IMG/VR virus record: IMGVR_UViG_3300045918_000199
Location: 1 to 45,008 of that record
Reading direction: 5' to 3' (one strand)
DNA: 45,008 bases
Source: a virus
Of the stretch, positions 1 through 45,008 are shown one piece after another. A model generated the notes under the pieces. It was not told the DNA's origin. It worked only from the letters and a program-made list of their open reading frames with translations, and made no database searches. Within the stretch, counting starts at the first letter, position 1; every line of letters begins with the position of its first letter. The translations under genes and the position numbers were made by a program.

Positions 1-127
1 GGCGGGGTTCACCCCCACGACGTTGAGAGGCCGAGCCTTCTGCGCCTCTTCAGGTGTCAGCCCCATGCGCGCGCCCAGGGCGACGTACATATTCGACACC
101 ATGATAGCATTTATCTCGTTCACGTCT
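1..127. repeat. Terminal duplication, copy 1 (identical to 44882-45008); circular-closure overlap
   Basis: Read directly: both copies run ggcggggttcaccccc...ttatctcgttcacgtct. The repeat lies inside an ORF that stays in frame across the junction. Confidence 0.95.
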
Positions 128-1821
128 TTCGTGAAGCGCCCGATCTTGGTGAACTGGTCAAGGTACACCTGCTTGACTTTGTCAGCGCTCTGTTGATGCG
201 CGACGCTATCGGCGGACTCAGAGATGACGCGCTTGGACTCTTGCGCCAGGAACTCTTCAGCCTTGCTGCTGGCCTCTTTGGCTTCAGCCTGGCTGTACTC
301 GTTCTCGCCGATGCGCGCGTGCTCCATGAGCTTTTGCTCAAGAGGTGTGCCGGCCACCTGGGACAGCAGCTCGCCGATGGGCACCGTGACCTCGTCGCCC
401 GGCAGCAGCTTGCCGCTCTCCAGCTGCGCCTTCACCGAGGGCAGCTGCGCCAGCTCTTCCTGGTTGAGCACTTCGCCTATCGTGCGCGCGTCAAAGCGCA
501 CCTCGGTGGGCGCGCCCTTGTCTTTGTTCTCCTCGGCGATCTGCTGCGTGACTTCAGCAAACGTGCTCGGGTTGTTCTTGCGCAGCGATGAATCGCTCGC
601 AGCTTTGAGCAGTGAGGTCAGCCGGTCGAACTCGGCGGTGGCTGCTTCCTGCTTCTGTTGCTCGCTGCCAAGCTGGTTGGTGATGCCTCCAACACCGTGC
701 ATCAGGGAGACATTACCCGCGGCGCCGACCAACACCGCGATGGCGGTTTGCGCAGCAGCTTCTGGCCGGGCCTTCAGGTAGTCCCCAAAAGTTTTACCCT
801 CGTGGTCAACAGCCCAGTCGTTCAGGTCTTGCAGTACCGTGGCGATCTGCTCGCCCTTGTTTTCTGCCCAAGCGTTTTTCAGGATAGAAGTGAACAGCGG
901 CGTGCCAGCCTTCATGTTGTGGACAAGCCCTGCCAACGGACCCATCTCTGTGCCCGCTTCAATCACCGCATCGCTCAGGCCGTGGCCCATCGCGGTCCAG
1001 TGACCAATGCCCTTCTCCGTGTCCTTCTGGTAGCTCTGCCCACCCGTGTTGGCGCTCATCGCGGTGAGGGCTGCCGCCTGCCCCCCGGGCAACACCGCGA
1101 GCAACATGGCGGGGGCGTTCTGGATGAAGGACTGCACGCCCCCCGACATGGCGCCGCCGAGCCAAGTGGCTGACTTGCCTTCAGCTGCTTTCTTCGCAGC
1201 GTTCTCGGAGTTCGCGATCTGCATGAACCCCTCAGACAAGCGGTGGAGTGGGTTCCCCCCAGGCAAGGAAGTGTTATCGAGGAAGTCAAGGGGGGTCCCG
1301 AGTGAGCGGGTCACCCCGCCAAACATCCCCGCGAAACCAGAGGAGGCGCCGTGGTAGGCGGCCTTGATGTCGCCGCCCAGCGTCGAGCTGGCGCCGGGGG
1401 CACCGACAAAATACTTCGCGCCGTTGACAAAGCCGTCGATGATTTGCGACATCGCGCTCGTGTCCTTGTGGACCTGCGCTACAAAATCAGGAGTGAGCAG
1501 CCGTTCCTTAATCGCGGGTGATGTCTGCGCCAGGTCGTTCAGCTCGCGGAATTTCACCATCGCTTCGACGGTGCCCTCTTGCGTCTTCACTGCTTCGAGG
1601 GGGATGCCTGTGACTTTGGAGAGATAGGCGTGATTGGCTGCGGTCAGCTCAGGTATCTTGATGCCTTGCGCAACGCTCGCGCGCAGGCGACCGCTGCCGC
1701 CTTCACGCTGCGCAAGCGCGGTGTCGAAGGGGTCGCTAGTCTCAGGGGCGGGGTTGCTCGTGCCAGGGCTGCCAGGAGACTGCGACTCACGAAGCGCTAG
1801 GAGGTCGTCAAAGCCGGCCAT
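1..1821 (-). CDS. Giant polyvalent internal virion/ejection protein, 5' part (continues across the circular junction into 44881..39866; joined product 2,278 aa)
   Basis: ATG at 1821-1819 with GAGG 6 nt upstream, 3 nt after the stop of 1825..3690. I translated the minus frame by hand and it is open to base 1. It is absent from the ORF track because it has no in-window stop. It joins codon-perfect (..GRFTKD|VNEINAIM..) to the 39866..45004 ORF. Confidence 0.85.
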   Translation of the reverse strand, partial: MAGFDDLLALRESQSPGSPGTSNPAPETSDPFDTALAQREGGSGRLRASVAQGIKIPELTAANHAYLSKVTGIPLEAVKTQEGTVEAMVKFRELNDLAQTSPAIKERLLTPDFVAQVHKDTSAMSQIIDGFVNGAKYFVGAPGASSTLGGDIKAAYHGASSGFAGMFGGVTRSLGTPLDFLDNTSLPGGNPLHRLSEGFMQIANSENAAKKAAEGKSATWLGGAMSGGVQSFIQNAPAMLLAVLPGGQAAALTAMSANTGGQSYQKDTEKGIGHWTAMGHGLSDAVIEAGTEMGPLAGLVHNMKAGTPLFTSILKNAWAENKGEQIATVLQDLNDWAVDHEGKTFGDYLKARPEAAAQTAIAVLVGAAGNVSLMHGVGGITNQLGSEQQKQEAATAEFDRLTSLLKAASDSSLRKNNPSTFAEVTQQIAEENKDKGAPTEVRFDARTIGEVLNQEELAQLPSVKAQLESGKLLPGDEVTVPIGELLSQVAGTPLEQKLMEHARIGENEYSQAEAKEASSKAEEFLAQESKRVISESADSVAHQQSADKVKQVYLDQFTKIGRFTKDVNEINAIMVSNMYVALGARMGLTPEEAQKARPLNVVGVNPA

Positions 1822-4215: not shown

Positions 4216-4217
4216 AT

Positions 4218-7871: not shown

Positions 7872-7883
7872 ATCAGTCCTTCA

Positions 7884-7911
7884 AACAAAAGCGGGGCCAC
7901 GCAGGCCCCGA
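7884..7911 (-). terminator. Rho-independent terminator/attenuator after the 131-aa gene
   Basis: On the minus strand: stem CGGGGCC, loop TGCGT, stem GGCCCCG, followed by CTTTTGTTT. It lies between the stop at 7934 and the start at 7871. Confidence 0.6.
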
Positions 7912-7933
7912 CTATCCAACACGGAGCCCAGGC

Positions 7934-8329: not shown

Positions 8330-8346
8330 GCGTTTCTTTCAGTATT

Positions 8347-8374
8347 AAAAAAGCCCAGCCCCGAGGGGCTGGGG
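8347..8374 (-). terminator. Rho-independent terminator/attenuator after the cement-protein gene
   Basis: On the minus strand an 8-bp GC stem (CCCAGCCC / GGGCTGGG) with a 4-nt loop is followed by TTTTTT (plus-strand A6 at 8347-8352). Confidence 0.7.
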
Positions 8375-8382
8375 CCACAACA

Positions 8383-8877: not shown

Positions 8878-8908
8878 AGGGTACTCCTGATTGATGAAGG
8901 GTTGCTAG

Positions 8909-8935
8909 TAGGGGGAAACTTTTGGCTTCCCCCTA
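8909..8935 (-). other. 9-bp hairpin between the capsid and cement genes (no T-run)
   Basis: TAGGGGGAA (8909-8917) pairs with TTCCCCCTA (8927-8935) across a 9-nt loop. There is no U-tract, so it is more likely an mRNA stability or processing element than a terminator. Confidence 0.35.
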
Positions 8936-8942
8936 GTCAGCT

Positions 8943-9962: not shown

Positions 9963-9973
9963 TTAGAGCCTCA

Positions 9974-10603: not shown

Positions 10604-10905
10604 GCTTTATGCTCCTGGAGCATGATGATGTAGTTGTCAAAAGACCCCTCCACCATCTCGTTAATCACAAACAAGCCCACGTTACGTTCACCCTCCAGGA
10701 AGTTGGTCTGCCCGCTGTTCGTGAATGACGAACGGTAGACGCCAGCTCTCCCCAGGAGACGATGAATAAACCTGCGGCCCTGCTTGTGTGCCATGAGCCA
10801 CTTGATGTCGTTCAGCTCCTGCAGTCGCTGGGCGTCAACTAAGAGGGTCTTGCCTTCCTGCTGTCGCGCTTCTTCTACAGTATCTGTCGGGTTCTCAAGT
10901 GACAT
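10600..10905 (-). CDS. Conserved hypothetical head-module protein
   Basis: 101-aa ORF between portal and scaffold, coupled to the scaffold gene. No motif recognised. Confidence 0.6.
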   Translation of the reverse strand: MSLENPTDTVEEARQQEGKTLLVDAQRLQELNDIKWLMAHKQGRRFIHRLLGRAGVYRSSFTNSGQTNFLEGERNVGLFVINEMVEGSFDNYIIMLQEHKA

Positions 10906-10946
10906 GGTGCGAATTGTGGCGGTGGGTGCTCACGTTAAGCACACGG

Positions 10947-12674: not shown

Positions 12675-12877
12675 CAGCTACCCAGCAACGTGCCACGCCC
12701 GAGCGTGAGTTGGCTGTTCTCCACGCCTGTTGGGCCGGTGAGCAGCGAGCCTCCAGCGTTGCCGCCGATCAGCTGGCGCCGCTTGCGCATAGCGCTCAGG
12801 TCCGCGATGTTCGGGTCCTGTGGCGTCTGGGGCGGGTCAATCGGTTTGGGCGCTTTGGGTCCGTCTGGTAGGCACAT
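12674..12877 (-). CDS. Small basic virion-type protein (RKRR ... SLLTG motif)
   Basis: 67 aa with GGAG 9 nt upstream of ATG 12877. Its stop overlaps the portal ATG by 1 nt. Shares an SLLTG-G motif with the 173-aa gp14-slot protein. Confidence 0.55.
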   Translation of the reverse strand: MCLPDGPKAPKPIDPPQTPQDPNIADLSAMRKRRQLIGGNAGGSLLTGPTGVENSQLTLGRGTLLGS

Positions 12878-12915
12878 AGGTCAGCTCCGGTCGGAGGTCA
12901 AGTATTCCGAGCACT

Positions 12916-13431
12916 CTACCGCGCCGCCGACGCGCTATGCACACGCTTGCGTTGGTTCGCGCTTTGCTGCTTGGGCGTAGCCCACCTGCAGTTCCCTGGT
13001 TCGTAGTCGCCGTCGTTGTCCACGCGATCTATCGTGTGCCCTGATGGGCGCTCCCCCATGTCCGCCAAAAACAGCGTGAAGTCCGCCCACCGCGCGCACA
13101 CCTGGATGCCCCTCGCGCCATACGATAGGTACTTCACGTTGCGCGGGTTCTCGCAGCGCCCACGCATCGCCTGCCACGTCATGTAGGTTGGGCTTATTTT
13201 GCCCCCACTGGCGTGGCCGTGAACCGGCGCGCGCCCCTTCGGCTTCGCCGCCTTGGGGGGTTTCTCTCTGCGCCTTCGGCACCCACACCCGGTGGATAGT
13301 CCCAGTCGCGCGTTGGTGGCCACAATGTCTCTCACGACACCGCACACGCACTGGCAACGCAGCATCTTATGCCGGTGTGTCGCGCTCGGTTCCGCTACAC
13401 CAAGAACTGTCCAGTCGCCGTACTTTTGCAT
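12916..13431 (-). CDS. HNH homing-type endonuclease (free-standing)
   Basis: 171 aa counted from ATG 13431 (GAAGGGG RBS). Contains Cys clusters plus YGARGIQVCARW...DRVDNDGDYEPGNCRWATPKQQ, a typical phage HNH signature. The longer track ORF to 13695 overlaps terL and is rejected. Confidence 0.8.
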   Translation of the reverse strand: MQKYGDWTVLGVAEPSATHRHKMLRCQCVCGVVRDIVATNARLGLSTGCGCRRRREKPPKAAKPKGRAPVHGHASGGKISPTYMTWQAMRGRCENPRNVKYLSYGARGIQVCARWADFTLFLADMGERPSGHTIDRVDNDGDYEPGNCRWATPKQQSANQRKRVHSASAAR

Positions 13432-30102: not shown

Positions 30103-30568
30103 TGCCGATGAGGTAGGCCAGAGCGGAGCCGCCGATCATGTCGAAGAAACCGAGCACGCGCCCCGCGATGATGTCGTGGGTGCCGTCAGGCACGCCGTTC
30201 ACAAACACGTAGAACTCCAGGCCCATCGCGATGAACACCAGCGCCATGCAGAAGTACACCACCGGCCGCTGAGCGCCCCCCGCTACGTTAGCCTTGCGCG
30301 CAGAGTCGCGATCTTGGAAAGCTATCTCGCTGAACTTGACGCCCATCTCCTGCTCTTTGGTTTTGAACTCCAGCTCCAGCTGCTTGAGCTGGACCACCTG
30401 CTCGGGCGTGAGCGTCGCGGTCTTGATGGCGTCAGCGATCTTGGACTGGGTTGCGTCGGGGATGCCAAGCAGATTGCCCAAGGCAGACACCGCCATGCCA
30501 CCCATCGGGCCAAGCACAGCAGTCGCGACCGTGGGCGCGAGCGATTTCAAAGTTGCAAGCCAGTCCAT
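30056..30568 (-). CDS. Holin (3-TM, GTA-holin-like)
   Basis: 170 aa. Amphipathic N-terminal half with ..FQDRDSARK.., then hydrophobic helices (VVYFCMALVFIAMGLEFYVFV and GGSALAYLIG). Its start shares 1 nt with the endolysin stop. Confidence 0.7.
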   Translation of the reverse strand: MDWLATLKSLAPTVATAVLGPMGGMAVSALGNLLGIPDATQSKIADAIKTATLTPEQVVQLKQLELEFKTKEQEMGVKFSEIAFQDRDSARKANVAGGAQRPVVYFCMALVFIAMGLEFYVFVNGVPDGTHDIIAGRVLGFFDMIGGSALAYLIGTTVGSQQKNDLLVAK

Positions 30569-31041
30569 CAGTTGTCTCCTGTTGCGTACTCAAGGTCCTT
30601 GGCTGCGCGTAGAGCCCAGCCCTTACCGAAGGTTGGCCAGTTGCTGAGCGAAGCCCAGAAGCGCAGCCGCTGCGCGATGAAGCGCATCAGCACGTCGTTG
30701 ACTTCCAGAGTGCTCAGCTTGGCTGCGCTGACTGGTCCCCAATGACCGTCGTCAGTCACGCCGATGGCGGCCTGCAGCTTGCGCACTGCGGTCTGGATGC
30801 CTGAGTTGACAGCGAAGTCAAACACCTGGAACTTGACAGCGTCGGGCACCTCGCCCAGCGGGTCCCAGAAGTCGCGCTTGTAGATGGCCTTGGCGCCGTC
30901 GCGCGTCAGGTTGGCGATGTCGACATCGGGGTAGCTGCGCTTGCTGATGCCCCAGTTCGTCTCGCCCCCAGGGTCGGCCGGGTCGTTGACGTAGCCGCCC
31001 TCGTTGGCGATGAGTCGGTCGAAGGCTTCGTCGAAGTTCAT
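30568..31041 (-). CDS. Endolysin, GH108-type N-terminus with PG-binding C-terminus
   Basis: 157 aa. FDRLIANEGGYVNDPADPGGETNWGIS is the GH108 signature as I recall it. Confidence 0.85.
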   Translation of the reverse strand: MNFDEAFDRLIANEGGYVNDPADPGGETNWGISKRSYPDVDIANLTRDGAKAIYKRDFWDPLGEVPDAVKFQVFDFAVNSGIQTAVRKLQAAIGVTDDGHWGPVSAAKLSTLEVNDVLMRFIAQRLRFWASLSNWPTFGKGWALRAAKDLEYATGDN

Positions 31042-33135: not shown

Positions 33136-34623
33136 TTAAGACGTAGCTCCTTTGTGCAGATTGAATTGAATCTCCACAGCCTCAGATAGCGAGCCAGCCG
33201 ATATGTTTTTTAATGCTATGGCTGCAACGCCTGCGGAAGTTACATCGAGATAAACTTGATATGTAAGATTCGTGGCAATACCACCCCGGATAGCCAAACT
33301 GAATGTGTCATTTAGTGTTAACAGTGAATTATTTAATGCAAATAACACAGTAGCACCCGCCGCCAAAGCAGCGTTATTCATCGTGATTCGTCCCGTAGGT
33401 GTATTCAGAGTAACCGCAGTAGATTTACTCGTAGCCTGAGTGACTGAGCCTCCTGCTCCTACGCCGTAGCCGAGGCCAGCGGGGGTGATTACTTGGAGTC
33501 CACCGATGCTTGGATAGTTAACCCGGCCTATCCCGTTGGAGCAGATAGTGAAATCGTGGTTTGAAAATGTTCCGCAAAGTACGCCGCTATTGTTTGTGTA
33601 GAAGCGGTAATCAAGGGTCTGTGTATTGTTATAAAAGCGCAACCCGCCGCCATTGGTAACATGGCCCTTATGTTCAATGAAGTTAAACCCCGCAGCGGCA
33701 CTAGGAATTACGTTTATCCCAACATTCCCACTGGCATCTTTGATAATCCCGCCATTACCAACATTAAGCGTATCGGTAGAGGCATCACCTAACGTGACAT
33801 TTCCTGTGGCAGAAAGAGTGGTAAACGCCCCAGTGCTAGGAGTCGTTGCCCCAATCGGAGTCCCATCAATAACGCCCTGAGGCACTGCTGCTCCGTACCG
33901 AACGACCACGTTGTTGGTAACCGCAGGAGGAGCGCCAGTCAGGAAGCTGATTGTCTTGGTCGAGGGCGTGTAAGAGAAGTTGACCCCAGCAGCCTGGACC
34001 ACCCCGCCAACAGACACCGCGCAGTTCGAGGCTACACCCGCGTCGTTCGTCAGGACAAAATCGGTTTGCGAACCCGTGCCACTAAAGAGCTGTGTCTGCC
34101 AATTCGCGTTCGCGACCGTCACGCCAAGCAACGCGGGCGAAAAGTTCTGCAGCTTGAGGCCGGTCGGGTCCCACCCGATGAGCGCCAGCGCGACAGCGCC
34201 AGGCAGTTCGTTAGTGCTGAGGGTGTCGGTCGGGGAGTTCGCAATCGCACGCGAGTTGCGCTCAGCGATCTGCTGCACCTGCATGAGAATACGGTCCAGC
34301 TCGCGCTCGAAAGCGACGGGGTCGAAGTTGCCCCCGCCAGGGATGGACAGCGTCTGGTCGTAGGGCAGCTGCCCGAGGAGCGCCAGCTTGTATCCGGTGG
34401 GCAGGGCCGTGGTCAGCGTGACGCTGCCGCCAGGTGAGGCCACCTGGTCCGCGTTCATCGTGACGGTGTAGCCCGAGGACAGGATTGTCTCGACGCCGTT
34501 GGTGTCCGCCTGCACGACTTGCACGTCAGTGGTGGCGAATATCTTGAAGCTGAAGGGATAAGGTACGTTGACCCCCGTCCCGGTGAACGGTCCAGCCTTA
34601 CGCGCGGTTGCAGGAACAGTCAT
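33136..34623 (-). CDS. Tail fibre protein (conserved N-terminal anchor, exchanged C-terminal tip)
   Basis: 495 aa with AGGAG 8 nt upstream. N-terminal KAGPFTGTGVNVPYPFSFKIF is typical of podoviral fibre anchors. The junction motif is PIGATTPSTGAFTTLSATG. GC drops 3' of about 33900. Confidence 0.75.
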   Translation of the reverse strand: MTVPATARKAGPFTGTGVNVPYPFSFKIFATTDVQVVQADTNGVETILSSGYTVTMNADQVASPGGSVTLTTALPTGYKLALLGQLPYDQTLSIPGGGNFDPVAFERELDRILMQVQQIAERNSRAIANSPTDTLSTNELPGAVALALIGWDPTGLKLQNFSPALLGVTVANANWQTQLFSGTGSQTDFVLTNDAGVASNCAVSVGGVVQAAGVNFSYTPSTKTISFLTGAPPAVTNNVVVRYGAAVPQGVIDGTPIGATTPSTGAFTTLSATGNVTLGDASTDTLNVGNGGIIKDASGNVGINVIPSAAAGFNFIEHKGHVTNGGGLRFYNNTQTLDYRFYTNNSGVLCGTFSNHDFTICSNGIGRVNYPSIGGLQVITPAGLGYGVGAGGSVTQATSKSTAVTLNTPTGRITMNNAALAAGATVLFALNNSLLTLNDTFSLAIRGGIATNLTYQVYLDVTSAGVAAIALKNISAGSLSEAVEIQFNLHKGATS

Positions 34624-34678: not shown

Positions 34679-37441
34679 TCAGCGTGGCTCTTGGTGGCCG
34701 AACAGCAATGCCATCGGGTTGTTGGTCTTGCCCTCTTTGAGAGCCTTGGCGCCTGTCACCGTGCGGTTGATCTGCGCGCTGGGTAGCCCGAAGACATCGC
34801 CCGACAGGTTGATGGCGGCCTTGCGGAAGCTGTCATCGAACTCGCCCTGGTTGGCCTGCTTGGCGAAGGCGAAGGTATCGGCCACCATGCGCACACCGGC
34901 CGGGCCTTGGTAGTCGCGGGGGTGGTCAGCCAGGCCAGCCATCGTGCGCCCAGCCTCGCCGAACTCACGCGACACAACCATCAGCCCCATCAGGTAGGTC
35001 AGCTGCTCGCCGGCCAGCTTGCGCGCGAGCTTCTTCGCGTCGTCATCGCCGCTGTCCCCAGGTGTCAGCGCATCGCGCAGCAGCGTGCCGAGTACCGCGG
35101 GCATCACCGCGAGCAGCATCACGTCGGCGGCCTTGCCCCCGGCCCCCTTGGTGCGTGCGCTGGAGTAGCTCAGGTTGGCGGCCGTGTTCATAAAAGCGTA
35201 GAAGGTGGTGAACAGCTTGGCCAGGGCGCCGCCGCGCTCGATGGCCGCCAGGTCCTTGGTCTGCCCCCCACCCTGGGAGTCGATCACCGCCTGGTCCGCC
35301 AAGGCGATGGCGCGCTCTTCGTCGTTGCCCTCGCTGATGGCCTTCTCGTAGCCGCCATGCCAGGTGGGCACGTCGACCGTGCGCTGCATGAACATCATCA
35401 GGGTGTAGGCGCTCTCGCGCGCTGCGGACAGCGGGCCGTGCTCGCCTTGCACCCTGTTGCGCAATTCGTTGAGGTCGCGGAACTGTGTGCGTGCGCGGTT
35501 TTCCATGAATTCGGACTTCTCTTTCGCTTCGCGCGTAGCCGCGACCGGGTTGGCCATGTAGATGCCCAGGCCCTTGCCAGCCCAGCCCGCGCCCAGCCGG
35601 CTGATGGACTGCGTGAAGCCCAGGGGCTGGATGGCAGCGGACATGAAGTTAAAGCCCAGGCCAGCCACGCTGACGTTCTGGCGCAGCTTGCCGATGGCGC
35701 TGTCTAGCGCCTCCTGTGAGCCGACATCGCCCTCGGCGATAGCATCGCGCCAGCTCTTGAACTGGCGCACCGCAGCGGGCCCGTAGTGGTCCCGCATCGC
35801 GCTGTCGACAGCGGTCGACTTGAGCAGGCGGTTGGTGTCGATGAGCCACTCGTGCCAGGCCAGGTCGTGGATGACATCGTTGACGCCGGTGTACAGACCG
35901 CTGAGGTCGTACAGCAGCGGGCGCCCGTTGACTTCCTCGACGCGGGCCTTGGTGAACGAGCGCCGCGTGGTGGCCACACCGTATGCGCCCTTGAGCTGGC
36001 GCTGCGCGCCCTCTGCGTCGGCGTGCTCTTCAGCGCGCACGCTCGCAGCGGTGTCGTACTTGACAGGGTAGTAGCCGCCAGGGATGCCGAGCATCTCGGT
36101 GATGGGCGAGCCCGCCTTAATCCACTCAGGCTCCTTGCCGTACACGCGCAGCTGCTTCTCGCCGATCTGCGGGCGGTAGCTCTCGAAGTGGTCCCACACC
36201 TGCTGCATGACTTTTTTGTCCGTGTCGTCCAGCGTCTCCATCACAGGCTTGAGCTGCTCCAGGGTCCAGCCCTCGCCGCCCAGCAGCCGCTGCAGGTTGG
36301 ACTCGTTGCCGGTGTTGAGCGCCATCGCCAGGACTTCCTGGCGCGTCATGCTGCGGTCGAGGCTGGGGTAGAAGGTGGCCTTGTGCAAGCCCTTCTTGGC
36401 CAGCCATGGGTGCATGATGTCGGTGAGTTTCTGCGTGGCCTCGGCGCGCTGCGTAGTTTCCCAGTCGCCCTTCTCGTTGGCGGCGCGGATGAAATACTCC
36501 CACACCTTACCACCATCCTTGCCGCCGTCCATGACGCGAGCCCAGGTGGCGGCCTTGATGTGCGCGCTGCCGAAGTTCTTGATGGCCTGCAGCCAGCGCC
36601 CCGTGCGCGTGGTGGGCGTGCGCGTGTTGGCCGTGCGATCACCAGCCAAGGTGTTGATGCTGTTGGCAATCTCGTCGCGCGCAGCAGCGAACTCGCGCTG
36701 GTCCTTCGCAGTGAGCAGCTTGTTCTTCAGGCGGCCCAGGTGCTCGATCTGCTTGATGGTGTCGAAGAGACCTTGGAACTCCTGGACCGTCATGTCCTTG
36801 TAGCTCGTGAGCTGCGCGTCTTCCTTGACGTAGTCGGGGATGTCGGGCTCCAGCCCCATCTCCTCCTGGCTCTTGAGCCAAGCAGCCAGCGAGGTGCGCT
36901 TGTCGAGTTCGCGCAGCGTGCGCTCTTTGAGGTCGACCCGCTCCAGCAGCTTGTCGATCTGGTCCTTGTACTCGGGCGGCAGCCGGTCGCTCTCTTCGAT
37001 TTTCTTCAGCGCCTTGACCTTCTTGTCGATGTCGGCCTGCGCGTCGAGCGTGGCCTTGGCCGCGTAGAACTGCAGCAGCTGGTCACGCTTGGCCTGGATG
37101 GCAGCGGCGGTATCGCCAGCCTTCATCGCATCAGCAGCGGCCTTGCCCGCGCGTGTCTCGGCTTGCGTGTGCTTGCCTGGCTTGAGGTCGCGCACCTTGC
37201 GCTGACCGATGAGGCGGTCGGCGAACTCTTTGGCTGCGCGAATCAGGATGTTCGGGTTGCCCTTGGACGCAGCCTTGCGCGACTTCACTGTGTCGATGTG
37301 CTTGTCCACCGCAGCAAGCGCAGCAGCCTGCGCGTCCATGCCCTGCGCGCGGAACTCAGCCGAGTGCTTGAGTATCGCCTCTTTGTCTTTGGCCTTGAGC
37401 GCCATGCCGGCTTTCGCCAGGCATCCAGTTAGTGTTCCCAT
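34679..37441 (-). CDS. Large (920 aa) virion-module protein of unknown function
   Basis: ATG 37441 shares 1 nt with the upstream stop. Mostly helical, with a hydrophobic stretch (ADVMLLAVMPAVLGTLL). No catalytic motif recognised. Confidence 0.65.
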   Translation of the reverse strand: MGTLTGCLAKAGMALKAKDKEAILKHSAEFRAQGMDAQAAALAAVDKHIDTVKSRKAASKGNPNILIRAAKEFADRLIGQRKVRDLKPGKHTQAETRAGKAAADAMKAGDTAAAIQAKRDQLLQFYAAKATLDAQADIDKKVKALKKIEESDRLPPEYKDQIDKLLERVDLKERTLRELDKRTSLAAWLKSQEEMGLEPDIPDYVKEDAQLTSYKDMTVQEFQGLFDTIKQIEHLGRLKNKLLTAKDQREFAAARDEIANSINTLAGDRTANTRTPTTRTGRWLQAIKNFGSAHIKAATWARVMDGGKDGGKVWEYFIRAANEKGDWETTQRAEATQKLTDIMHPWLAKKGLHKATFYPSLDRSMTRQEVLAMALNTGNESNLQRLLGGEGWTLEQLKPVMETLDDTDKKVMQQVWDHFESYRPQIGEKQLRVYGKEPEWIKAGSPITEMLGIPGGYYPVKYDTAASVRAEEHADAEGAQRQLKGAYGVATTRRSFTKARVEEVNGRPLLYDLSGLYTGVNDVIHDLAWHEWLIDTNRLLKSTAVDSAMRDHYGPAAVRQFKSWRDAIAEGDVGSQEALDSAIGKLRQNVSVAGLGFNFMSAAIQPLGFTQSISRLGAGWAGKGLGIYMANPVAATREAKEKSEFMENRARTQFRDLNELRNRVQGEHGPLSAARESAYTLMMFMQRTVDVPTWHGGYEKAISEGNDEERAIALADQAVIDSQGGGQTKDLAAIERGGALAKLFTTFYAFMNTAANLSYSSARTKGAGGKAADVMLLAVMPAVLGTLLRDALTPGDSGDDDAKKLARKLAGEQLTYLMGLMVVSREFGEAGRTMAGLADHPRDYQGPAGVRMVADTFAFAKQANQGEFDDSFRKAAINLSGDVFGLPSAQINRTVTGAKALKEGKTNNPMALLFGHQEPR

Positions 37442-38160
37442 CAGAGTACCTCACAAGCTATTAGTGTTGCGACCATCCGCAAAATCTCTTCGTGCTCCTG
37501 CTGTCTGCGCAGCCTGGTCAAGCCCCCCTGCGTGGCCGCGAGCCGGATGACTTCCACCTCCGCCCCCGACTGGAATACGTCAGGAGCGTACCCCTCGAAT
37601 GTTATCACCCCCGCGTCGGGGACCCCCTCGAAGGAGCCAGGGGTCGACTGCGCCACATCGGGCGCGTAGCCGGTGAAGGCTAAGGCGCCAGCGTCAGGGG
37701 ACAGTGCCTGTGGCTGCTCAATCGTCGGAGCGTACCCCGTGAAGCTGAGCGCGCCAGGGTCCGGCACTAAGGCCCGCGGTTGAAGGATGGAGGGCGCGTA
37801 GCCGGTGAAGGCTAAGGCGCCCGCGCCAGGGGAGAGGGCCTGGGGCTGGAGGATACTCGGGGCAAAACCCGTGAAGGCTATCGAACCAACACCAGGGGTG
37901 GCGGACTGTGTCTGAGATACCGTGGGCGCCAGCCCAGTAAAGACGAGGACCCCCGCCCCCGGGGTGAGCGAGATACTGCCCCCCGCGGGTTCGACCCAGG
38001 TGCTGAGCCCCAGCACCGCATCGACCGGCTGCGCTGTCGCGCTCGCTGGCGTGGCGAACTGCTGGTTGTTTATGCCATCGACAAGCGCCGATGTTCCCGG
38101 CGTGGCCGGTGTGGCGAACGCATCATTGGCGATGACGCCGTCAATGAGCGTGAAGGCCAC
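37441..38160 (-). CDS. Tandem 22-aa-repeat protein (FTGYAP repeats)
   Basis: 239 aa. GTG at 38160 with GGGAG upstream. Six repeats of about ..PGAGALAFTGYAPSILQPQALS... Confidence 0.7.
   Translation of the reverse strand: MAFTLIDGVIANDAFATPATPGTSALVDGINNQQFATPASATAQPVDAVLGLSTWVEPAGGSISLTPGAGVLVFTGLAPTVSQTQSATPGVGSIAFTGFAPSILQPQALSPGAGALAFTGYAPSILQPRALVPDPGALSFTGYAPTIEQPQALSPDAGALAFTGYAPDVAQSTPGSFEGVPDAGVITFEGYAPDVFQSGAEVEVIRLAATQGGLTRLRRQQEHEEILRMVATLIACEVL
37570..37977 (-). repeat. 66-nt tandem repeats (about 6 units) inside the 239-aa gene
   Basis: Phe codons recur every 22 residues (F74, F96, F118, F140, F162). The 29-nt string ggcgcgtagccggtgaaggctaaggcgcc recurs at 37661 and 37793, which is 2 x 66 nt apart. 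Confidence 0.85.
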
Positions 38161-38163
38161 TGA

Positions 38164-38364
38164 TTACTCCCCGGCAGCAGCCAGTATTGCAGCCTTCACT
38201 TCCGCAAAAAGCGTGTCCAGTCCAACCGGCAGGCAGGTCAGGCAGTAGTTACCGCCGCGCGCGGTGCCGACTGGCTCCAGCAGGGTGTTCTCTGTGTTCG
38301 AGCTAACGACCGCCTCTTCCGCGCCTTGAACAGCGCAGATGTCACAGATAAGATTTTCATCCAT
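38164..38364 (-). CDS. Small Zn-ribbon protein (CDIC...CLTC)
   Basis: 66 aa from ATG 38364 with AAGGAG 9 nt upstream. The ATG shares 1 nt with the upstream TAA. Confidence 0.6.
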   Translation of the reverse strand: MDENLICDICAVQGAEEAVVSSNTENTLLEPVGTARGGNYCLTCLPVGLDTLFAEVKAAILAAAGE

Positions 38365-39035
38365 TATGTGTACTCCTTCCAAGCTCCGTTAATCGTCAAC
38401 TTGCGGTTCGCTGTGGTAACTGCCAAGGCGTTCCAGACAACGATGCCCTCCCCTGCAGCCAGCACAATCTCGTCACCCTCTTCGTCGGGCGCCCAGTTAT
38501 CTTGCTGCGCTTGCCAGTGCCCGGCACCGCCTGTCACAAGGTCCATCGTCATGCCAACGTACTCAAACAACGTGGCGACCAGGGTGACAGTGAGGCCGGT
38601 CATTGCTGCGGAAGCCAGAAGCTGTGCCGCCGCGTCTGCCGTGGCGCGCTTGGCTGGGGTGATGGTCGCAGCGGATAGCGTGCCGGTGAAGCTGATGCGG
38701 CTAACCCGCAAGATAGGGGCAATTAAGTCCACCGCCAGCGTGGTGCTGAAATTGTGCTCAAGGAAAAGCCGTGAGAGTGCCACCTTCACCGTGGAGGCCA
38801 ACGGGTTTGTGAGGTACAACATCCCCGTAGTGGTGCCCGTCTGAACTGCGGTCGGGATAGCGGCAGCGGTCGCGTTGGCTTTATAGCGGCCAGTCTCACT
38901 GCGCTCGGTCGAGGGGATGAAGAAGTATTCCACCACCGTGTTCGCTCCGACCGTCGATTCCTTGGCACGGACCTTCTTGCCGGTGTTGCCCGAGTCGGTG
39001 GGCAGGATGATTACTTGGTCTGTCTTTGCTGCCAT
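38364..39035 (-). CDS. Beta-rich protein of unknown function (223 aa)
   Basis: Strong AAGGAG RBS. Thr/Ala/Val-rich composition suggests a beta-sandwich. No family recognised. Confidence 0.65.
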   Translation of the reverse strand: MAAKTDQVIILPTDSGNTGKKVRAKESTVGANTVVEYFFIPSTERSETGRYKANATAAAIPTAVQTGTTTGMLYLTNPLASTVKVALSRLFLEHNFSTTLAVDLIAPILRVSRISFTGTLSAATITPAKRATADAAAQLLASAAMTGLTVTLVATLFEYVGMTMDLVTGGAGHWQAQQDNWAPDEEGDEIVLAAGEGIVVWNALAVTTANRKLTINGAWKEYT

Positions 39036-39044
39036 GTTGGCTCC

Positions 39045-39518
39045 TTAAGTGGCGGAGATAAGTCCCGAGGCGTTCGGGGTTACCGTGAGGGTGTTCGGGG
39101 CCGTCGTGGCAGGGACGTTAGCTGGGGTCGCGTCTCCGAGGAAGTACCCCACGATGGGGTTGACTTTGCCGTTGAGCGTGCCGAGATAATAGATGAGGCC
39201 GTAGCGCCAGGCGGGGATGCCGGTGCCGTCAGCGGTCCAGACCGCAGCTGCTGAGGTGAACTTGACCACACCAGCGGCTTGCGCAAGAGTCACGCCGGTG
39301 AGAGCAATCCCTCCCGCGGCGTAGGCGGTTTGGCCGGCCGTAGCAATCTCGTTGGCGGAGGCGTCCGCGAAGACCTCATCGGTCGTGGGCGCGGGTGTCC
39401 AGGCCGACGTGATGAGCGCCAGCCGGTAGAGGGCGGAGCCGGTTTTCAGAAGGCCGGTTGCGCCTTCGAGAAAGTTCAGCTTCGTCTTTTGTGGAAAAGT
39501 AATTACGCCTGCAGCCAT
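39045..39518 (-). CDS. Beta-rich protein of unknown function (157 aa)
   Basis: GAGG RBS with ATG at 39518. No family recognised. Confidence 0.65.
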   Translation of the reverse strand: MAAGVITFPQKTKLNFLEGATGLLKTGSALYRLALITSAWTPAPTTDEVFADASANEIATAGQTAYAAGGIALTGVTLAQAAGVVKFTSAAAVWTADGTGIPAWRYGLIYYLGTLNGKVNPIVGYFLGDATPANVPATTAPNTLTVTPNASGLISAT

Positions 39519-39521
39519 GTG

Positions 39522-39869
39522 TTACCTCACAGTCTCAATTTCCATAATCTTCTTCGTGCCCTGGTAGTCGGTGTAGGTCACGCGCAACTTCTTGTCGGCC
39601 TGCTCCACCTCGGGCGGCATGACGATGGTGTTGTTCACTATCGGCGTCGGCACAGTGACCGACACCGCTGGCGATGTCACGTTGACCACCGGGGGCTCGT
39701 CCTTCTCCTCGGCCTCGTGGGCCTGGAGCACAGCGACCTGCTCTTTCAGACGCAGCACTTCCTCGCGCTGGCCTTGCAGGGCTTGCGCCAGGGAGGTGTT
39801 CTCTGCCTTCAGCGCATCCAGTGTGTGGAACACGTCGGCGAAGGCGGCATCTATTTCGAGCGGTGTCAT
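39522..39869 (-). CDS. Coiled-coil plus beta-tail protein (115 aa)
   Basis: ATG 39869 forms an ATGA overlap with the giant gene stop. GAAGGAG lies upstream. Confidence 0.6.
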   Translation of the reverse strand: MTPLEIDAAFADVFHTLDALKAENTSLAQALQGQREEVLRLKEQVAVLQAHEAEEKDEPPVVNVTSPAVSVTVPTPIVNNTIVMPPEVEQADKKLRVTYTDYQGTKKIMEIETVR

Positions 39870-42800
39870 GCTTTGATGCACTCCTTCAACTTCTCCAGCA
39901 CTTTAGTGTTGGGCTCGCTCTTTAAGCGCACGCCGTCTTCCAGCGCGCGCAGCTCGGTGGCCACGAAGTTGGCTCGCGCCTCGTTGTGGATGGCCTCGTC
40001 TGCGGCGCGCTCGATACCCTTGGGGGTGGTCAGGTCCCCGTAGCGCTCCAGCAGCCGCTGATCGGTCATGCCTTCGATGACGTGCTTGATGGGCTGCGCC
40101 TCGGCGATGGCGCGCAGCATCTGGTCAGGCGAGGTGTAGCCCAGCTGCTCGGACATGAACTGGATGTCGGCGTCGTTGCGCTCGCCCTTGAGCGAGTCGA
40201 GATAGTCCTTGGCCACGTACACCGGCTGCTGCTCCACCTCTGCGCGCACCTCGGCCTCGACCGCTTTGCGCTTGGCTTCGACATCCTTGGTCACCGCCTT
40301 AATGGCTTTGTTGCGCGCGCTGACCGACCACTTCAGGTCACGCAGGCTGCGCGCCTGCAGCTTCTCGATGGCGTCCTCAGTCGCGTTCTGCGCAGCGAGC
40401 TGGTACTGGGTCCACTCGTCGGGCTCCATGCCAGCCTCCTCGGCGGTGGTGAACAGCGGCGTCATCTTGCGCGCGGCCTCGGTCTCTTCAATCTGCGCTT
40501 CGGTCGCAAGCATGCGGTCGTAGACCCCGCGCACCTCATCGGTCAGGTCGCTGTTGTGCGCCTTCATAAAATCTTGCAGCGAGCGGTACACGTTCTTCAT
40601 CCAGCTGGAGAAGCGCTGGAAAATGCCGTGCATCTCTTTGCTCGGGGCGCGCCCCTCGAACAGATACAGCTCGTAGTGCTCGGCGAATTTCTCATGGAAC
40701 TGGCGCTTCTCTTCCAAGCTCATCGTGTTCCAGCTGGCCAGGTCGCTGACGCCAAACCACTTGAGCACCTTGGTCATGTCGGACGCCGCAGAGGTGTTGC
40801 CGTCCAGTGCCAGCTGCGTGAGCGCGTCGAGGTAGAAGTGCCCCATCTCGTGGTGGAACGTGGACAGGTCCGCGTTCTCCAGCAGGGAGATGGTCAGTGT
40901 CTTCGGGTTGTAGGTGCCGCGGCTGCCACCAGGCTGGGACAGGTCCGCGTCGGACAGCTTGGTGCCGTCCATCAGCAGGAAGAACTCAGGGTTAAAGGGG
41001 CTCCAGGCTTCCGCCATCGGGCCGTGGACTCCGCCCTCCCCGTCAGACAGCTGCGCAATGGCCTGCTGCTTGAGAGTGACGCTGAGCGCGTGGGCTTCCT
41101 CGGGGGTGAGCGGGCGGTCGAGCTTGGCCACCACGGTGGGCTCGGTGTTGGACTCGTGGACCTCGTGGGTCTCGACGGTGACGCCGATGGCCTTGAGCGC
41201 GTCCAGTACAGCAGCTGGTGTGAGCGGCGCCCCGCCCTCGACGTTGAGGCCGATGTTGACTAGGTTGCCATCGGTCGCTTGGTTTAGGACATCGCCGCCA
41301 GGTTTACCATCTCGGCGGAGGATTTCGAGGCGCTTGGCTGCACGGTTTTCGTGTCGGCCCTGAACAACTCCAACAAACGGCGCTGTTTCTCGGCCAGCGC
41401 GGGAGACTTCAGTTGCTGCTGCTCCTGAATCAAGGTCGCTGAGTCTATCGCCGAGTCCCGCGTCGCGGAGGATGGCTTCGTATTTTGCGTCATGGAATAG
41501 CCCCTTAAAATCTGGAGTCGAGCGAAGCATGTCATCCGTCAGCGACTCGTCCATCAGGATGTCAGTGGCGGACTTGTCAGCTGTCTGCGCTTCGTAAAGC
41601 GTTTTGGCCCAGGACCAGATGGTCTCCTGCACCTCAGCCGGCGTCCAGGTCTCGCCAGTTTTCTCAGTCAGTATTTTAGCAGCTTGCCGCACCTTTGCGT
41701 TCATGGCCAGGTAGCCCGGCCCCTTGCCCGCATCGGTGGAGTTGAGCGAGCCCTTGAACATCTTCTGGTCGACCAGGGCGAAGTTCGCCATCCAGGCGTC
41801 GTTGGTCACCTCGTTGACGTTGCCAAGCAGGTTGCGCATGAAGCTGTCAACCTTGGGGCCTGACAGTAAATCGGTGCCGGGGTTCTCCGTGGTCAGCGCG
41901 CGCACGCTGTTGTTTATCCAAGCGTCGAGCACGCTGTCGACACCGCCGCTACCTTCGACAGAGGCACCCATCACCTTGACGATTTCCTCGCGCGTCTGTG
42001 GGCGCCCGGCCGCCACCCAGTTCTTCCAGGTGTGCAGCGAGTTGAGCAGGTTAGTCTGCACAGGGTTCTGTGGGGACATCGCAGCGAGCAGTCCCACAAA
42101 GCGCGGCGCGTCGGGGCCGAACACCTGGCCGATAGCCTTGGCGCTTTCCTTGTACCAGCCCCGCTTAGCGCGGCCCGCCCACGCTACCGCAGCGAACTCA
42201 TCGGCGTGGGGCAAGCTGTCGAAGTAATCGACCAGGCGCCCAGCGGTAGCCTTGTTGAGCTTGCCGCGTTCTTTGTCGGTGAGGTGCTTCTCAATCTTCG
42301 CGAGCTTGGCGACCTTGTCGTCTTGCTTGTACACCGGGTCAGGCGTCTTGCTCTCGAAGGACTTGAACAGCTCCGACTTGTACATCGTCTGCGTCAGGTC
42401 GCCGTTGAACACACCGGCGCGCTCGAAGGCGTCGAGCACTGCGGGGTCCTTGGACAAAATCTCTTTCCAGCGCGAGAGTGGCGCTGAGCCTGCGGGCAGC
42501 GAACTGTCCGCGCGCAGTGCGTCAAGCACTACATCGCGGCCAAGCGCTACACGAGGCCCAGCATCCGGTACGCGCTGGGCTTCCTCAATCTTCGTCCGGG
42601 GGCCGAGCACCTCGGGCTTGACTGTCTGGTCGCCCAACAGGATGACCTGGCCAGGCTGCTCCCCGCTCATGCGGTCGAGGTAGCCCGAGTATCCGGCGTC
42701 GAGCACGCGGGTCTCGAAGTCGGTTTGGCTGCCCTTCTTCAAGCGCAGCGGGTCCGTGTTGGCGTCGTAGATGTTGGAGAGCTGCGCCTTGTGCGCGATG

Positions 42801-45008
42801 CCCCCCACGCCAGCCTCGGGGCGCACGCCGGTGCCCTTGTCGACGTAGAACGACAGGCGCTTGCCCAGTCGCTTGTCTGATGCGTTCTGGTAGGTCTCAC
42901 GGCCACTGCCCTTCAGGCCCGTGCCGTAGTGGTTGGTGTCCAGCAGCGGGCGCTCGGCCTTGCTGTAGTGGTAGGCCTCGACGGTCATGCCCTTGCTGAC
43001 CTTACTCAAGCTCGTGCCACCGCCCTTGCCGAAGTCGGCGCCAGCGCGCTCGTTGACCAGGTCGGTCGATGCGGTGAGCGCAGCGTCGAGCCAGCTCGGT
43101 TTGGCCTTGAGCCCGAGCAGATCAGTCTTCACCCAGTCGGCGAACTTCTGCAGCAGGGTCTTGCCCTTGTACTCGACAGAGGCCATGACCTGCTGCAGAC
43201 GGTTGTCGGTGAGCGCGCGCACGAAGAACTCGTCCTTATCGAGCAGCGCCTCCTGGATGGACAGCAGCGTCTCTTCATCGGTCACGCCCTTGCGCAGCTC
43301 TTCGGCCTGGGCCTGGAACTCTGAGTGCAGCGCGTTGAGCTGCTTGATGGCAGGCGACGTGGCCTTGGTGCTGTCGAGCTGGCCATACCTGGCAGCCACA
43401 CCCATGTGCAGCAGCTCGTGCAGGAAGGTGCCATAGGTGAGCCCCAGGCGCCCTTCCGGTACAGCTGCGCTCTTCGCTGTGTAGAGCGTGAGGGTGGGCG
43501 TGCCTGTCTTCATGCTGACGGCGCCGTGCGCGTCAGCCTTGGTGGTGTCGTCAACGGTTAGCGTGAAGTTGCTGGTAGGCAGGAAGTCCTTGACCTTCTG
43601 CGCCAGCGCCTTCATCTCCGCAGGCCCGCTCTTGATGATTTCATCGAGCGCCTTGGTGGCAGCTTCCAGCCCGTTCGTGTTGCCGCGCAGGATGCTCGCG
43701 ACGCTGGCGGGCATCTGCTTCTCGACCAGGTCGGAGAGCACGCGCGGGTCTGCCTTCGCTTCAGGCGTGACGGCGCCGAGCAGCGCGGCCAGCGCTTCGC
43801 GGCGGTTGAAGTTCACGCGCTGCTTGTTGATGCTCGGGTCGCGCGCATCGAAGTTGCCGTTGTTGCCGGTGGCGGATTTGATTTGGGTTGGCTGCGAAGG
43901 GGCGTATGTTTCGACGCCACCCTCTTTCACGATGATGCCATCGTAGCCAAGACGATGTACACCTTCTGCAAATTTTTGAGATGTCACGACACGGTAAACC
44001 AGATGGCCCCTGCCGTAATCATTTGACAGATTGTCGTCTAGGCCAAGTTTACGAAGCAGCGGCTTGATGGCGTCAACATTGTCATTCATGTCAACTTCAA
44101 TGCGGAGCGGGTTCTTTATAGACAAGTACACCGGCATCACGTTTGGGCCTGTGTAGTCTTTGTCGCTAATCGGGCGAGGGTAGCCCCCTGCCAACTCTGG
44201 ATTTGCAGAGAACCAACCAGCCCACTCGTAGCCGCCGAACTCTTCGATGTCTGCGTTTGTCCCGTGATAAACCACCAGCGGCTTGCCATCGGCATCGACG
44301 ACCTTGCTGTCACCGAACCACTCTTTGAAAGCCTGCGTCTCGGTGATTTTGCTTTGCTTGTCCTGCACCCCAGGATGCACAGCCTGGTGGTCGTCGAAGG
44401 CGACGACGTGGGTCTCTTGCTTGCCCAGGTGTTTGGCCGTGACGATGATGCCGTCGTAGCCCTGCGCGCGCAGCTCTTCGCGGTATGCGTGAGCTTCCTG
44501 CACGCTGTCAAAGCCGGGCATATCCTCGGCCTTGATGATCTTGGGGTTGCGGATGTCCAGGTGCAGCGACTCCACCTTGCCGTAGGTGGAGGCCTCGCCC
44601 TTACCGGTGGTGAACCATACGCCCAGCCCTGAGCTGGGGTTGCCGCTGGCTTTGCCTAAGCTGCCTGGCTTGAAGTGGTCTGACTTGAGGGCTTCGGCTG
44701 CGCCGCGGTGGACGAGGATTGGTTCGCCTTTTCGGCTGATGCGAGTAGCGCTAGACCACCCTTCTGCTGCGGGTTTTCCTGCAACAGTTGTGCCCAGCTT
44801 TTGTTCTGAGCCGACTCGTCCATCTCCAGCAGTTGTTCCAGGTCCATCTTGGTTTCCTTGTTGCAGCGTCTCTGCTGCGGTGGCGGGGTTCACCCCCACG
44901 ACGTTGAGAGGCCGAGCCTTCTGCGCCTCTTCAGGTGTCAGCCCCATGCGCGCGCCCAGGGCGACGTACATATTCGACACCATGATAGCATTTATCTCGT
45001 TCACGTCT
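39866..45008 (-). CDS. Giant polyvalent internal virion/ejection protein, 3' part (5' part is 1..1821 across the junction)
   Basis: Minus frame is open from the window end to TGA 39868-39866. The track M at 45004 is an internal GTG (Val). Motifs read in translation: ILVHRG/GVWFTT and VVYHGT/GWFSAN ART-like modules, HELLH (43406-43420) and HEMGH (40838-40852). Confidence 0.85.
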   Translation of the reverse strand, partial: DVNEINAIMVSNMYVALGARMGLTPEEAQKARPLNVVGVNPATAAETLQQGNQDGPGTTAGDGRVGSEQKLGTTVAGKPAAEGWSSATRISRKGEPILVHRGAAEALKSDHFKPGSLGKASGNPSSGLGVWFTTGKGEASTYGKVESLHLDIRNPKIIKAEDMPGFDSVQEAHAYREELRAQGYDGIIVTAKHLGKQETHVVAFDDHQAVHPGVQDKQSKITETQAFKEWFGDSKVVDADGKPLVVYHGTNADIEEFGGYEWAGWFSANPELAGGYPRPISDKDYTGPNVMPVYLSIKNPLRIEVDMNDNVDAIKPLLRKLGLDDNLSNDYGRGHLVYRVVTSQKFAEGVHRLGYDGIIVKEGGVETYAPSQPTQIKSATGNNGNFDARDPSINKQRVNFNRREALAALLGAVTPEAKADPRVLSDLVEKQMPASVASILRGNTNGLEAATKALDEIIKSGPAEMKALAQKVKDFLPTSNFTLTVDDTTKADAHGAVSMKTGTPTLTLYTAKSAAVPEGRLGLTYGTFLHELLHMGVAARYGQLDSTKATSPAIKQLNALHSEFQAQAEELRKGVTDEETLLSIQEALLDKDEFFVRALTDNRLQQVMASVEYKGKTLLQKFADWVKTDLLGLKAKPSWLDAALTASTDLVNERAGADFGKGGGTSLSKVSKGMTVEAYHYSKAERPLLDTNHYGTGLKGSGRETYQNASDKRLGKRLSFYVDKGTGVRPEAGVGGIAHKAQLSNIYDANTDPLRLKKGSQTDFETRVLDAGYSGYLDRMSGEQPGQVILLGDQTVKPEVLGPRTKIEEAQRVPDAGPRVALGRDVVLDALRADSSLPAGSAPLSRWKEILSKDPAVLDAFERAGVFNGDLTQTMYKSELFKSFESKTPDPVYKQDDKVAKLAKIEKHLTDKERGKLNKATAGRLVDYFDSLPHADEFAAVAWAGRAKRGWYKESAKAIGQVFGPDAPRFVGLLAAMSPQNPVQTNLLNSLHTWKNWVAAGRPQTREEIVKVMGASVEGSGGVDSVLDAWINNSVRALTTENPGTDLLSGPKVDSFMRNLLGNVNEVTNDAWMANFALVDQKMFKGSLNSTDAGKGPGYLAMNAKVRQAAKILTEKTGETWTPAEVQETIWSWAKTLYEAQTADKSATDILMDESLTDDMLRSTPDFKGLFHDAKYEAILRDAGLGDRLSDLDSGAAATEVSRAGRETAPFVGVVQGRHENRAAKRLEILRRDGKPGGDVLNQATDGNLVNIGLNVEGGAPLTPAAVLDALKAIGVTVETHEVHESNTEPTVVAKLDRPLTPEEAHALSVTLKQQAIAQLSDGEGGVHGPMAEAWSPFNPEFFLLMDGTKLSDADLSQPGGSRGTYNPKTLTISLLENADLSTFHHEMGHFYLDALTQLALDGNTSAASDMTKVLKWFGVSDLASWNTMSLEEKRQFHEKFAEHYELYLFEGRAPSKEMHGIFQRFSSWMKNVYRSLQDFMKAHNSDLTDEVRGVYDRMLATEAQIEETEAARKMTPLFTTAEEAGMEPDEWTQYQLAAQNATEDAIEKLQARSLRDLKWSVSARNKAIKAVTKDVEAKRKAVEAEVRAEVEQQPVYVAKDYLDSLKGERNDADIQFMSEQLGYTSPDQMLRAIAEAQPIKHVIEGMTDQRLLERYGDLTTPKGIERAADEAIHNEARANFVATELRALEDGVRLKSEPNTKVLEKLKECIKA
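44882..45008. repeat. Terminal duplication, copy 2 (identical to 1-127)
   Basis: Read directly. Confidence 0.95.

Follow-up and report, generated by a model that had tools for sequence, protein, structure and literature searches.

A probable IVP-D-type internal virion protein of a BPP-1-like podovirus with ADP-ribosyltransferase and zincin-like domains

The viral DNA of IMG/VR record IMGVR_UViG_3300045918_000199, positions 1 to 45,008, encodes among its virion genes a protein of 2,278 aa, and the locus raises the question of what a protein of this size, furnished with several enzyme-like modules, contributes to infection. The protein carries two modules of the ADP-ribosyltransferase (ART) family ART-PolyVal and two domains with an HEXXH motif, which we describe below as zincin-like. 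Our comparisons suggest that the gene probably encodes an internal virion protein of the IVP-D class (T7 gp16 or Bbp10 type) which, in a BPP-1-like podovirus, has grown into a polyvalent carrier of effectors. Throughout, the window denotes the whole stretch of 45,008 nucleotides, positions are those of the window, and residues follow the full-length protein.

Bases 1-127 of the window recur exactly as 44882-45008; assembly with k = 127 of a genome that is circular or terminally redundant leaves just such a 127-bp terminal direct repeat. The window represents the whole phage genome as a complete circular assembly, with a unique length of 44,881 bp and a GC content of 61.9%. Once the ends are joined, a single minus-strand open reading frame (ORF) of 2,278 aa runs from an ATG at 1821 to position 1 and then from 44881 to a stop codon at 39866-39868, and its ATG sits 3 nt past the stop of an upstream 621-aa ORF. 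The gene is therefore met in two parts when the window is read linearly:

1..1821, minus strand: 5' part of the giant gene, residues 1-607; ATG at 1819-1821
39866..45007, minus strand: 3' part of the giant gene, residues 566-2278 plus the stop at 39866-39868

The original prediction, made from the letters of the window, had placed a 2,278-aa ORF at 39866-45008. The ORF is real and has that length; it is encoded on the minus strand, however, and across the junction, and only the C-terminal 1,713 aa are encoded within those positions. Its residue numbers were counted in the window, and adding 565 converts them to full-length numbering. All of its quoted peptides were recovered in this way, EPILVHRG at residue 660, YDGIIVTA at 749 and PLVVYHGT at 808, along with a second peptide of the same kind, YDGIIVKE, at 920. 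The two HEXXH motifs are exactly where it had put them, HELLH at 43406-43420 (residues 1095-1099) and HEMGH at 40838-40852 (residues 1951-1955). Two such motifs in one protein are not due to chance, because amino-acid composition predicts only 0.07 HExxH and two or more arose with a probability of 0.003 in 5,000 shuffles. Among 50,697 phage records, megablast found nothing matching the region; the relatives are distant and detectable at the protein level only.

To see how the protein is built, we mapped the coverage of its 120 closest homologues along its length. Of the 120, 118-119 extend over residues 1-610 and 1925-2260, against 0-56 over the middle. Bbp10 of Bordetella phage BPP-1, a 2,052-aa protein of the epsilon15/BPP-1 group, matches the N- and C-terminal thirds with E = 5e-67 and 2e-88, respectively. 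We refer to the two conserved ends as the chassis and to what lies between them as cargo. In order along the protein, the parts are:

127..1773, continuing 44849-45007, minus strand: N-terminal chassis module, residues 17-618; 34% identical to Bbp10 11-605; present in 119 of 120 homologues
1441..1644, minus strand: LPD22-like segment within that module, residues 60-127; 27.1 bits, just below the Pfam cut-off of 28.6
44384..44731, minus strand: ART1, apparently a divergent ART-PolyVal copy, residues 658-773; R666, W696, Y707, D750
43850..44296, minus strand: ART2, apparently a canonical ART-PolyVal copy, residues 803-951; H813, W830, Y841, D921
43031..43738, minus strand: predicted zincin-like domain 1 with HELLH (HEXXH-1), residues 989-1224; invariant E1158 at 43229-43231
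42293..43018, minus strand: cargo domain, residues 1229-1470; common to about 31 of 120 homologues, no family
41612..42184, minus strand: cargo domain DUF7178 (PF23802), residues 1507-1697; 43.3 bits
40967..41263, minus strand: small cargo domain, residues 1814-1912; phrog_11722 match
39899..40930, minus strand: C-terminal chassis module with HEMGH (HEXXH-2), residues 1925-2268; 44% identical to Bbp10 771-1172

About 1,300 residues of cargo thus lie between the two modules: two ART-PolyVal domains, an extra zincin-like domain, DUF7178 and two domains without a family. The N-terminal module contains two Gly/Ala-rich hydrophobic stretches (about 222-257 and 353-378), and PF18834 (LPD22) is listed for most of the homologues returned. 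Cargo content forms a series, from none in Bbp10 through a single ART in Caulobacter phage Jess A to six domains in the giant protein. Relatives carry LPD22 and ART-PolyVal too, and in them zeta-toxin, GNAT, RadC, DUF3293, SLT (soluble transglycosylase) and various LPD domains take the place of other cargo. Prophage-like homologues are present in Cupriavidus, Acidovorax and Variovorax, and the host of the phage is therefore probably a member of the Burkholderiales. Such a set of domains, LPD22, ART-PolyVal, zeta-toxin, GNAT and RadC in particular, is that of the polyvalent proteins of Iyer et al. 2017 (PMC5512222), and the label of polyvalent protein given at the outset is well placed. We also considered whether the family-less domain at 1229-1470, in which YHYS, SFYVD and GYSGYLD look faintly ART-like, could be a third, degenerate ART; hhalign gave this a probability of only 9% over 21 columns, which does not support the idea.

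Assignment of the chassis to IVP-D follows from Bbp10, which is listed as a homologue of IVP-D (T7 gp16) in Table 2 of Hardies et al. 2016 (PMC4819975). The same paper describes IVP-D proteins as hosts for 'domains destined for the cytoplasm'. The genes upstream of the giant gene, named here from PHROG and Pfam assignments, are in the matching order:

7215-7871, minus strand: tubular A
4675-7218, minus strand: tubular B
4218-4682, minus strand: gp13-like protein, 154 aa
3694-4215, minus strand: gp14-like protein, 173 aa
1825-3690, minus strand: 621-aa ORF in the gp15 position

This order is kept in relatives, with a tail fibre after the giant gene, and Bbp10 occupies the same slot past tubular A/B and small internal proteins. 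The gene had been described as following tubular A/B and two smaller internal proteins; the order is as described, but three ORFs separate the giant gene from tubular B. Its proposed T7 gp16 position is borne out both by this synteny and by the homology to Bbp10, a listed IVP-D. Additionally, the capsid genes are of BPP-1 type, with GP7 (E = 2e-130), Bbp16 and Bbp19 as in phage BPP-1, and the portal is T7-type.

Bbp10 is a single polypeptide, equivalent to the N-terminal module, the C-terminal module and one further ORF of the window, without ART or other cargo between the modules:

34679..37441, minus strand: 920-aa ORF, 60% identical to Bbp10 1177-2052 (its last ~870 aa)
37441..39881, minus strand: four small ORFs (119, 157, 223 and 239 aa) between the halves of the Bbp10-type gene

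Judged by these alignments, the Bbp10-type gene is split here after the C-terminal module. The split is common to close relatives, and in many other homologues the 920-aa part is fused to the giant protein.

The database names of the homologues would point elsewhere. GenBank calls the Jess A protein 'lysis protein' and Bbp10 a 'crystallin beta/gamma motif-containing protein' or lysin, and the giant protein could on that account be taken for a lysis protein or a lysin. We give this almost no credence. The names are all that speaks for it, and Pfam scans found no lysozyme, SLT, amidase or crystallin domain in any segment of the giant protein. The phage moreover has an endolysin of its own, and position and homology are those of an IVP-D:

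30568-31041: GH108-family endolysin, 86 bits; downstream of the tail-fibre gene at 33136-34623

We next turn to the cargo. Against the whole giant protein, Pfam ART-PolyVal (PF18760) gives E = 2.2e-31. The family has a curated cut-off of 31.2 bits, and each copy was also scanned alone: ART1 reaches 33.5 bits (E = 8.3e-8) and ART2 89.1 bits (E = 5.7e-25). Both of the tandem ART-like modules that had been proposed are therefore above the cut-off. The active-site layout proposed with them, H/R-S/T-E, did not hold up, as the paper that defines ART-PolyVal gives His in strand 1, Tyr in strand 2 and Asp in strand 5, assigns the family to the Tox-ART-HYD2 clade and contrasts it with the R-S-E of T4 Alt (PMC5512222).

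We compared the two copies column by column in an alignment of 105 ART-PolyVal domains of related giant proteins. The catalytic column of strand 1, in the YHG[TS] motif, is His in 98 domains, Arg in five and Lys in one; ART2 has H813 at this place, and ART1 has R666, with H665 one residue before. In the aromatic column of strand 2, Phe (42 domains), Tyr (37) and Trp (10) all occur, and both copies in the window have Trp (W830 and W696), followed 11 residues later by a second conserved Tyr (Y841 and Y707). The strand-5 column of the GYDG motif is Asp in 97 of the 105, including D921 of ART2 and D750 of ART1. On these residues, ART2 reads as a canonical member of the family, and ART1 as a rare Arg variant or a degenerate copy; ART2 is more likely than ART1 to be the active one.

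The two copies appear to have separate histories. ART1 has no close orthologue among the compared ART domains. The coding DNA of ART2 (43850-44296) has 53.5% GC, with 62% at third codon positions (GC3), and the remainder of the gene has 62-64% GC and a GC3 of 70-88%. Because its DNA is GC-poor, the ART2 cassette is suggested to be a recent acquisition from a lower-GC source. A recent tandem duplication producing ART1 and ART2 was considered and rejected, since pairwise BLAST aligns only 21 residues around GYDGII.

Iyer et al. class ART-PolyVal with protein-modifying enzymes, by analogy with T4 Alt (PMC5512222), and host proteins may accordingly be the substrate. Alternatively, the domains could be NADases or modify nucleic acids, like other enzymes in the H-Y-[E/D] branch (DarT acts on DNA, KptA/Tpt1 on RNA). 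Their H-Y-D (Tox-ART-HYD2) clade is shared with polymorphic toxins and toxin-antitoxin systems (PMC5512222), a 2022 survey states that some phage ARTs may degrade NAD+ (PMC9503650), and our search of the literature found no target named for any ART-PolyVal domain. Our results fit either reading, and we consider this alternative rather unlikely.

The second kind of cargo is domain 1, residues 989-1224, which does not occur in any of the 120 closest homologues. Searched exhaustively with HMMER, a set of 1.84 billion representative proteins yielded 89 relatives, most of them within proteins of 1,000 to 7,000 aa. All of 69 sequences keep H1095, E1096, H1099 and E1158. An AlphaFold model of the domain (pLDDT 85, pTM 0.81) has, in its own numbering, a backing helix at 44-56, strands at 63-67, 76-79 and 86-90, the HEXXH helix at 106-127 and then the helix of E1158. 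In the published zincin core, an N-terminal backing helix and a sheet of three strands precede the HEXXH helix, and a helix with the Glu follows (PMC5512222); the predicted topology of domain 1 is this one.

Profile comparisons place domain 1 among ejected proteins of other podoviruses. Its profile matches PDB chain 9sfn_G ('Internal virion protein', 1,337 aa) with E = 1.1e-8 and both motifs aligned. LKD16 gp37 shows 100% identity to this chain over the 157 aa aligned, and we take the chain to be the gp37 protein of phiKMV-like phages. The hidden Markov model (HMM) of domain 1 scores 87.7 bits on LKD16 gp37 (residues 328-563) and 36.1 bits on the virion RNA polymerase of the N4-like phage Possum (residues 2300-2456, again with both motifs aligned). 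In their own records these genes are located as follows:

4792-8805 of the LKD16 record: gp37
1900-12981 of the Possum record: virion RNA polymerase

The HEXXH region of N4-like virion RNA polymerase was unified with zincins by Iyer et al. (PMC5512222), and residues 2300-2456 of the Possum protein are its counterpart. Consistent with this, Foldseek of the domain-1 model against viral models (BFVD) gave 18 matches at E <= 1e-3, which are virion RNA polymerases, internal core proteins and polyvalent proteins; one of them is a Vibrio phage virion RNA polymerase (E = 3.2e-6). From these comparisons, domain 1 appears to be a cargo copy of the zincin-like domain of phiKMV gp37 and N4 virion RNA polymerase, and its assignment as a zincin is made by conservation, predicted topology and homology to that domain. 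A literature search on PDB 9SFN found no paper, and the Ar-KM preprint gives other accession codes. As a side observation, the conserved HEXXH...E zincin-like domain of phiKMV-like gp37 goes unmentioned in a 2026 structural preprint on a phiKMV-like phage.

HEXXH-2 had likewise been taken for payload. It is instead part of the conserved chassis, its module occurring in 118 of the 120 homologues and in Bbp10. The module consists, in order, of a beta-hairpin, the HEMGH helix, H2003-E2004 (40691-40696), E2011, Y2013 and long helices. Invariant in an alignment of 27 sequences are S1947, H1951, E1952, H1955, D1975, W1991, H2003, E2004, E2011 and Y2013, so that both E2004 and E2011 are candidate third metal ligands. 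The model of this domain (pLDDT 80) has only a two-strand hairpin, with HEXXH in a helix at 27-47 (model numbering) and long helices, and sequence and profile searches of the PDB with the module gave nothing useful. We describe HEXXH-2 as a putative divergent, minimal zincin-like module, an assignment less secure than that of domain 1.

The module also seems to accept cargo itself. When its HMM was split in halves, HEXXH-2 was found in 25 of 25 re-examined homologues, with inserts of 130-300 aa between the HEXXH and Glu helices. Going by these alignments, there are two cargo insertion sites in proteins of this type, one before the chassis zincin module and a second within it, in the gap between the HEXXH helix and the Glu helix. 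In about one fifth of the homologues (P0008, P0023, P0083 and others), ART or ParB-like domains stand within the chassis zincin-like module.

If the protein is an IVP-D, a sequence of events can be proposed by analogy. It would be housed in the core of the capsid and leave the virion before the DNA, like T7 gp16, N4 virion RNA polymerase and other IVP-D proteins. The chassis and its split-off 920-aa partner may then act at the inner-membrane end of the ejectosome, and the cargo would enter the cytoplasm. One or both zincin-like modules might cut the polypeptide and free the cargo, and the NAD+-dependent ART domains would ADP-ribosylate host targets early in infection, by analogy with T4 Alt. 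The role of host-takeover or anti-defence payload that was originally put forward is an extrapolation of the same kind.

The zincin-like modules could also serve the breach of the envelope. They may be enzymes that open it, for example by cutting peptidoglycan peptide stems, or that mature the ejectosome, and not autoproteases releasing cargo; the ARTs would still be effectors. HEXXH-2 is universal in the chassis, even in cargo-free Bbp10, and therefore its role is not cargo release only. Moreover, the 621-aa ORF in the gp15 position gave no hit to SLT or lysozyme domains, in contrast to Bbp11 of BPP-1, which contains an SLT according to its GenBank annotation; Pfam and PHROG also gave no hit for this ORF, and PDB searches gave nothing useful. 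The ejectosome is therefore one without an identifiable cell-wall enzyme. There is a precedent in the ejection protein of cyanophage A4, in which a metallopeptidase stands beside a transglycosylase (PMC12002296), but that peptidase is an M23 enzyme of a different fold. For the zincin-like metallopeptidase domains of polyvalent proteins, autoprocessing has been proposed (PMC5512222), and the domain is also found in N4 virion RNA polymerase, a protein with cytoplasmic cargo. Neither Pfam scans of the HEXXH regions nor the structure search with domain 1 matched a known cell-wall peptidase family. On balance, we regard an envelope role as quite unlikely, and release of cargo as the preferred function.

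Several results weigh against the reading as an effector-carrying IVP-D. No direct match to T7 gp16 was seen for the giant protein, and searches with its N-terminal module and with the 920-aa ORF turned up neither T7 gp16 nor any PDB chain. ART1 has Arg in place of the catalytic His and barely exceeds the family cut-off, and sequence and profile searches of the PDB with the ART profile detected no solved ART-PolyVal structure. The two zincin-type HEXXH motifs that had been proposed do lie in conserved domains with an invariant downstream Glu, but neither region matches a Pfam zincin or metallopeptidase family, even at the reporting limit of E = 10. Among solved structures, the domain-1 model has weak zincin matches on top (4l7a, E = 0.015, TM 0.30; MATCAP, E = 0.25; BoNT/X, E = 3.9), and Foldseek with the whole C-terminal model returned long-helix noise, the best at E = 1.2. 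An hhalign comparison of domains 1 and 2 is colinear, pairing HEXXH with HEXXH, HE-FAE with DEFFVR and RFxxW with RFxDW, at a probability of only 9.9%; it is only through this alignment with domain 1 that domain 2 is tied to the corresponding region of N4-like virion RNA polymerase.

Alternatively, the protein could be purely structural, its enzyme-like modules being inactive relics that only add mass or contacts in the capsid core. Loss of the His in ART1 and the Pfam result for the HEXXH regions would fit, as would the description of IVP-D proteins as mostly helical scaffolds (PMC4819975). Against this, the HEXXH and Glu positions are invariant in the 69 sequences of domain 1 and the 27 of domain 2, and the ART His and Asp are kept in 98 and 97 of 105 domains. 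In addition, the fast, cassette-like turnover of the cargo is a pattern seen in conflict effectors and not in scaffolds. We hold a purely structural role to be very unlikely, and an IVP-D carrying effectors to be the probable identity of the protein.

Comparison with known systems places the protein more closely. Like the polyvalent proteins of Iyer et al., it is large, multidomain and encoded among virion genes, has more than one ART-PolyVal copy, combines zincin-like HEXXH domains with LPD-type domains and varies in content between relatives; it differs from them in the lack of a Pfam metallopeptidase-family match for its HEXXH domains. With phiKMV-like gp37 and N4-like virion RNA polymerase it shares the HEXXH...E domain, and these are IVP-D-class ejected proteins, by analogy with which the giant protein would be ejected too. 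N4 virion RNA polymerase is the classic cytoplasmic enzyme embedded in an IVP-D, whereas the giant protein has no RNA polymerase. Here the domain is variable cargo, and the chassis has its own divergent version in HEXXH-2.

T4 Alt, an ADP-ribosyltransferase packaged in the head and injected with the DNA, is the functional model for the ARTs of polyvalent proteins. It belongs, in contrast, to the R-S-E (Alt/VIP2) clade and is a single-domain effector outside any ejectosome protein. The P1 Dar proteins DarB and DdrB are likewise large, virion-packaged and multidomain, and are injected to protect or assist the incoming DNA; DdrB has a C-terminal zincin-like metallopeptidase domain for which autoprocessing is proposed (PMC5512222). 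Yet P1 is a myovirus, and the Dar proteins, which lie inside its head, are unrelated to IVP-D and have methylase/helicase and ParB-like domains but no ARTs.

The class itself, polyvalent proteins with ART-PolyVal and zincin-like domains, their likely delivery by the virion and the hosting of cytoplasmic domains by IVP-D have already been published (PMC5512222, PMC4819975, PMC9503650). The giant protein is a good, well-resolved example of this described class and not a new kind of system; its annotation is solid but unsurprising, as the domain class and the idea of IVP-D as a host date from 2016-2017. What we add is modest: an explicit Bbp10 chassis with two cargo sites, a universal HEXXH-2 module and a link between the cargo zincin domain and phiKMV gp37. 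The HEXXH domain recurs in gp16-class proteins of podoviruses (phiKMV gp37, N4 virion RNA polymerase, Bbp10), and Bbp10, the Jess A protein and the giant protein form a natural series for asking whether ejection proteins deliver enzymes and whether a built-in protease frees them.

A bolder and rather doubtful version of this idea is that the Bbp10-type IVP-D is a programmable delivery chassis. HEXXH-2 would be its release protease; it would be put together or switched on only once the protein has been ejected and has refolded, and would then free changeable effectors. In the giant protein these would be the canonical H-Y-D ART, the Arg-variant ART, which would differ in specificity, and a second protease. 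If true, podoviruses would have self-processing, ejection-gated effector delivery.

The four small ORFs between the halves of the Bbp10-type gene were considered as detached cargo modules and rejected, as they match nothing within any of 209 giant proteins. The 239-aa ORF (37441-38160) consists in part of tandem repeats of about 20 aa, of the form 'PGAGALAFTGYAPSILQPQAL'.

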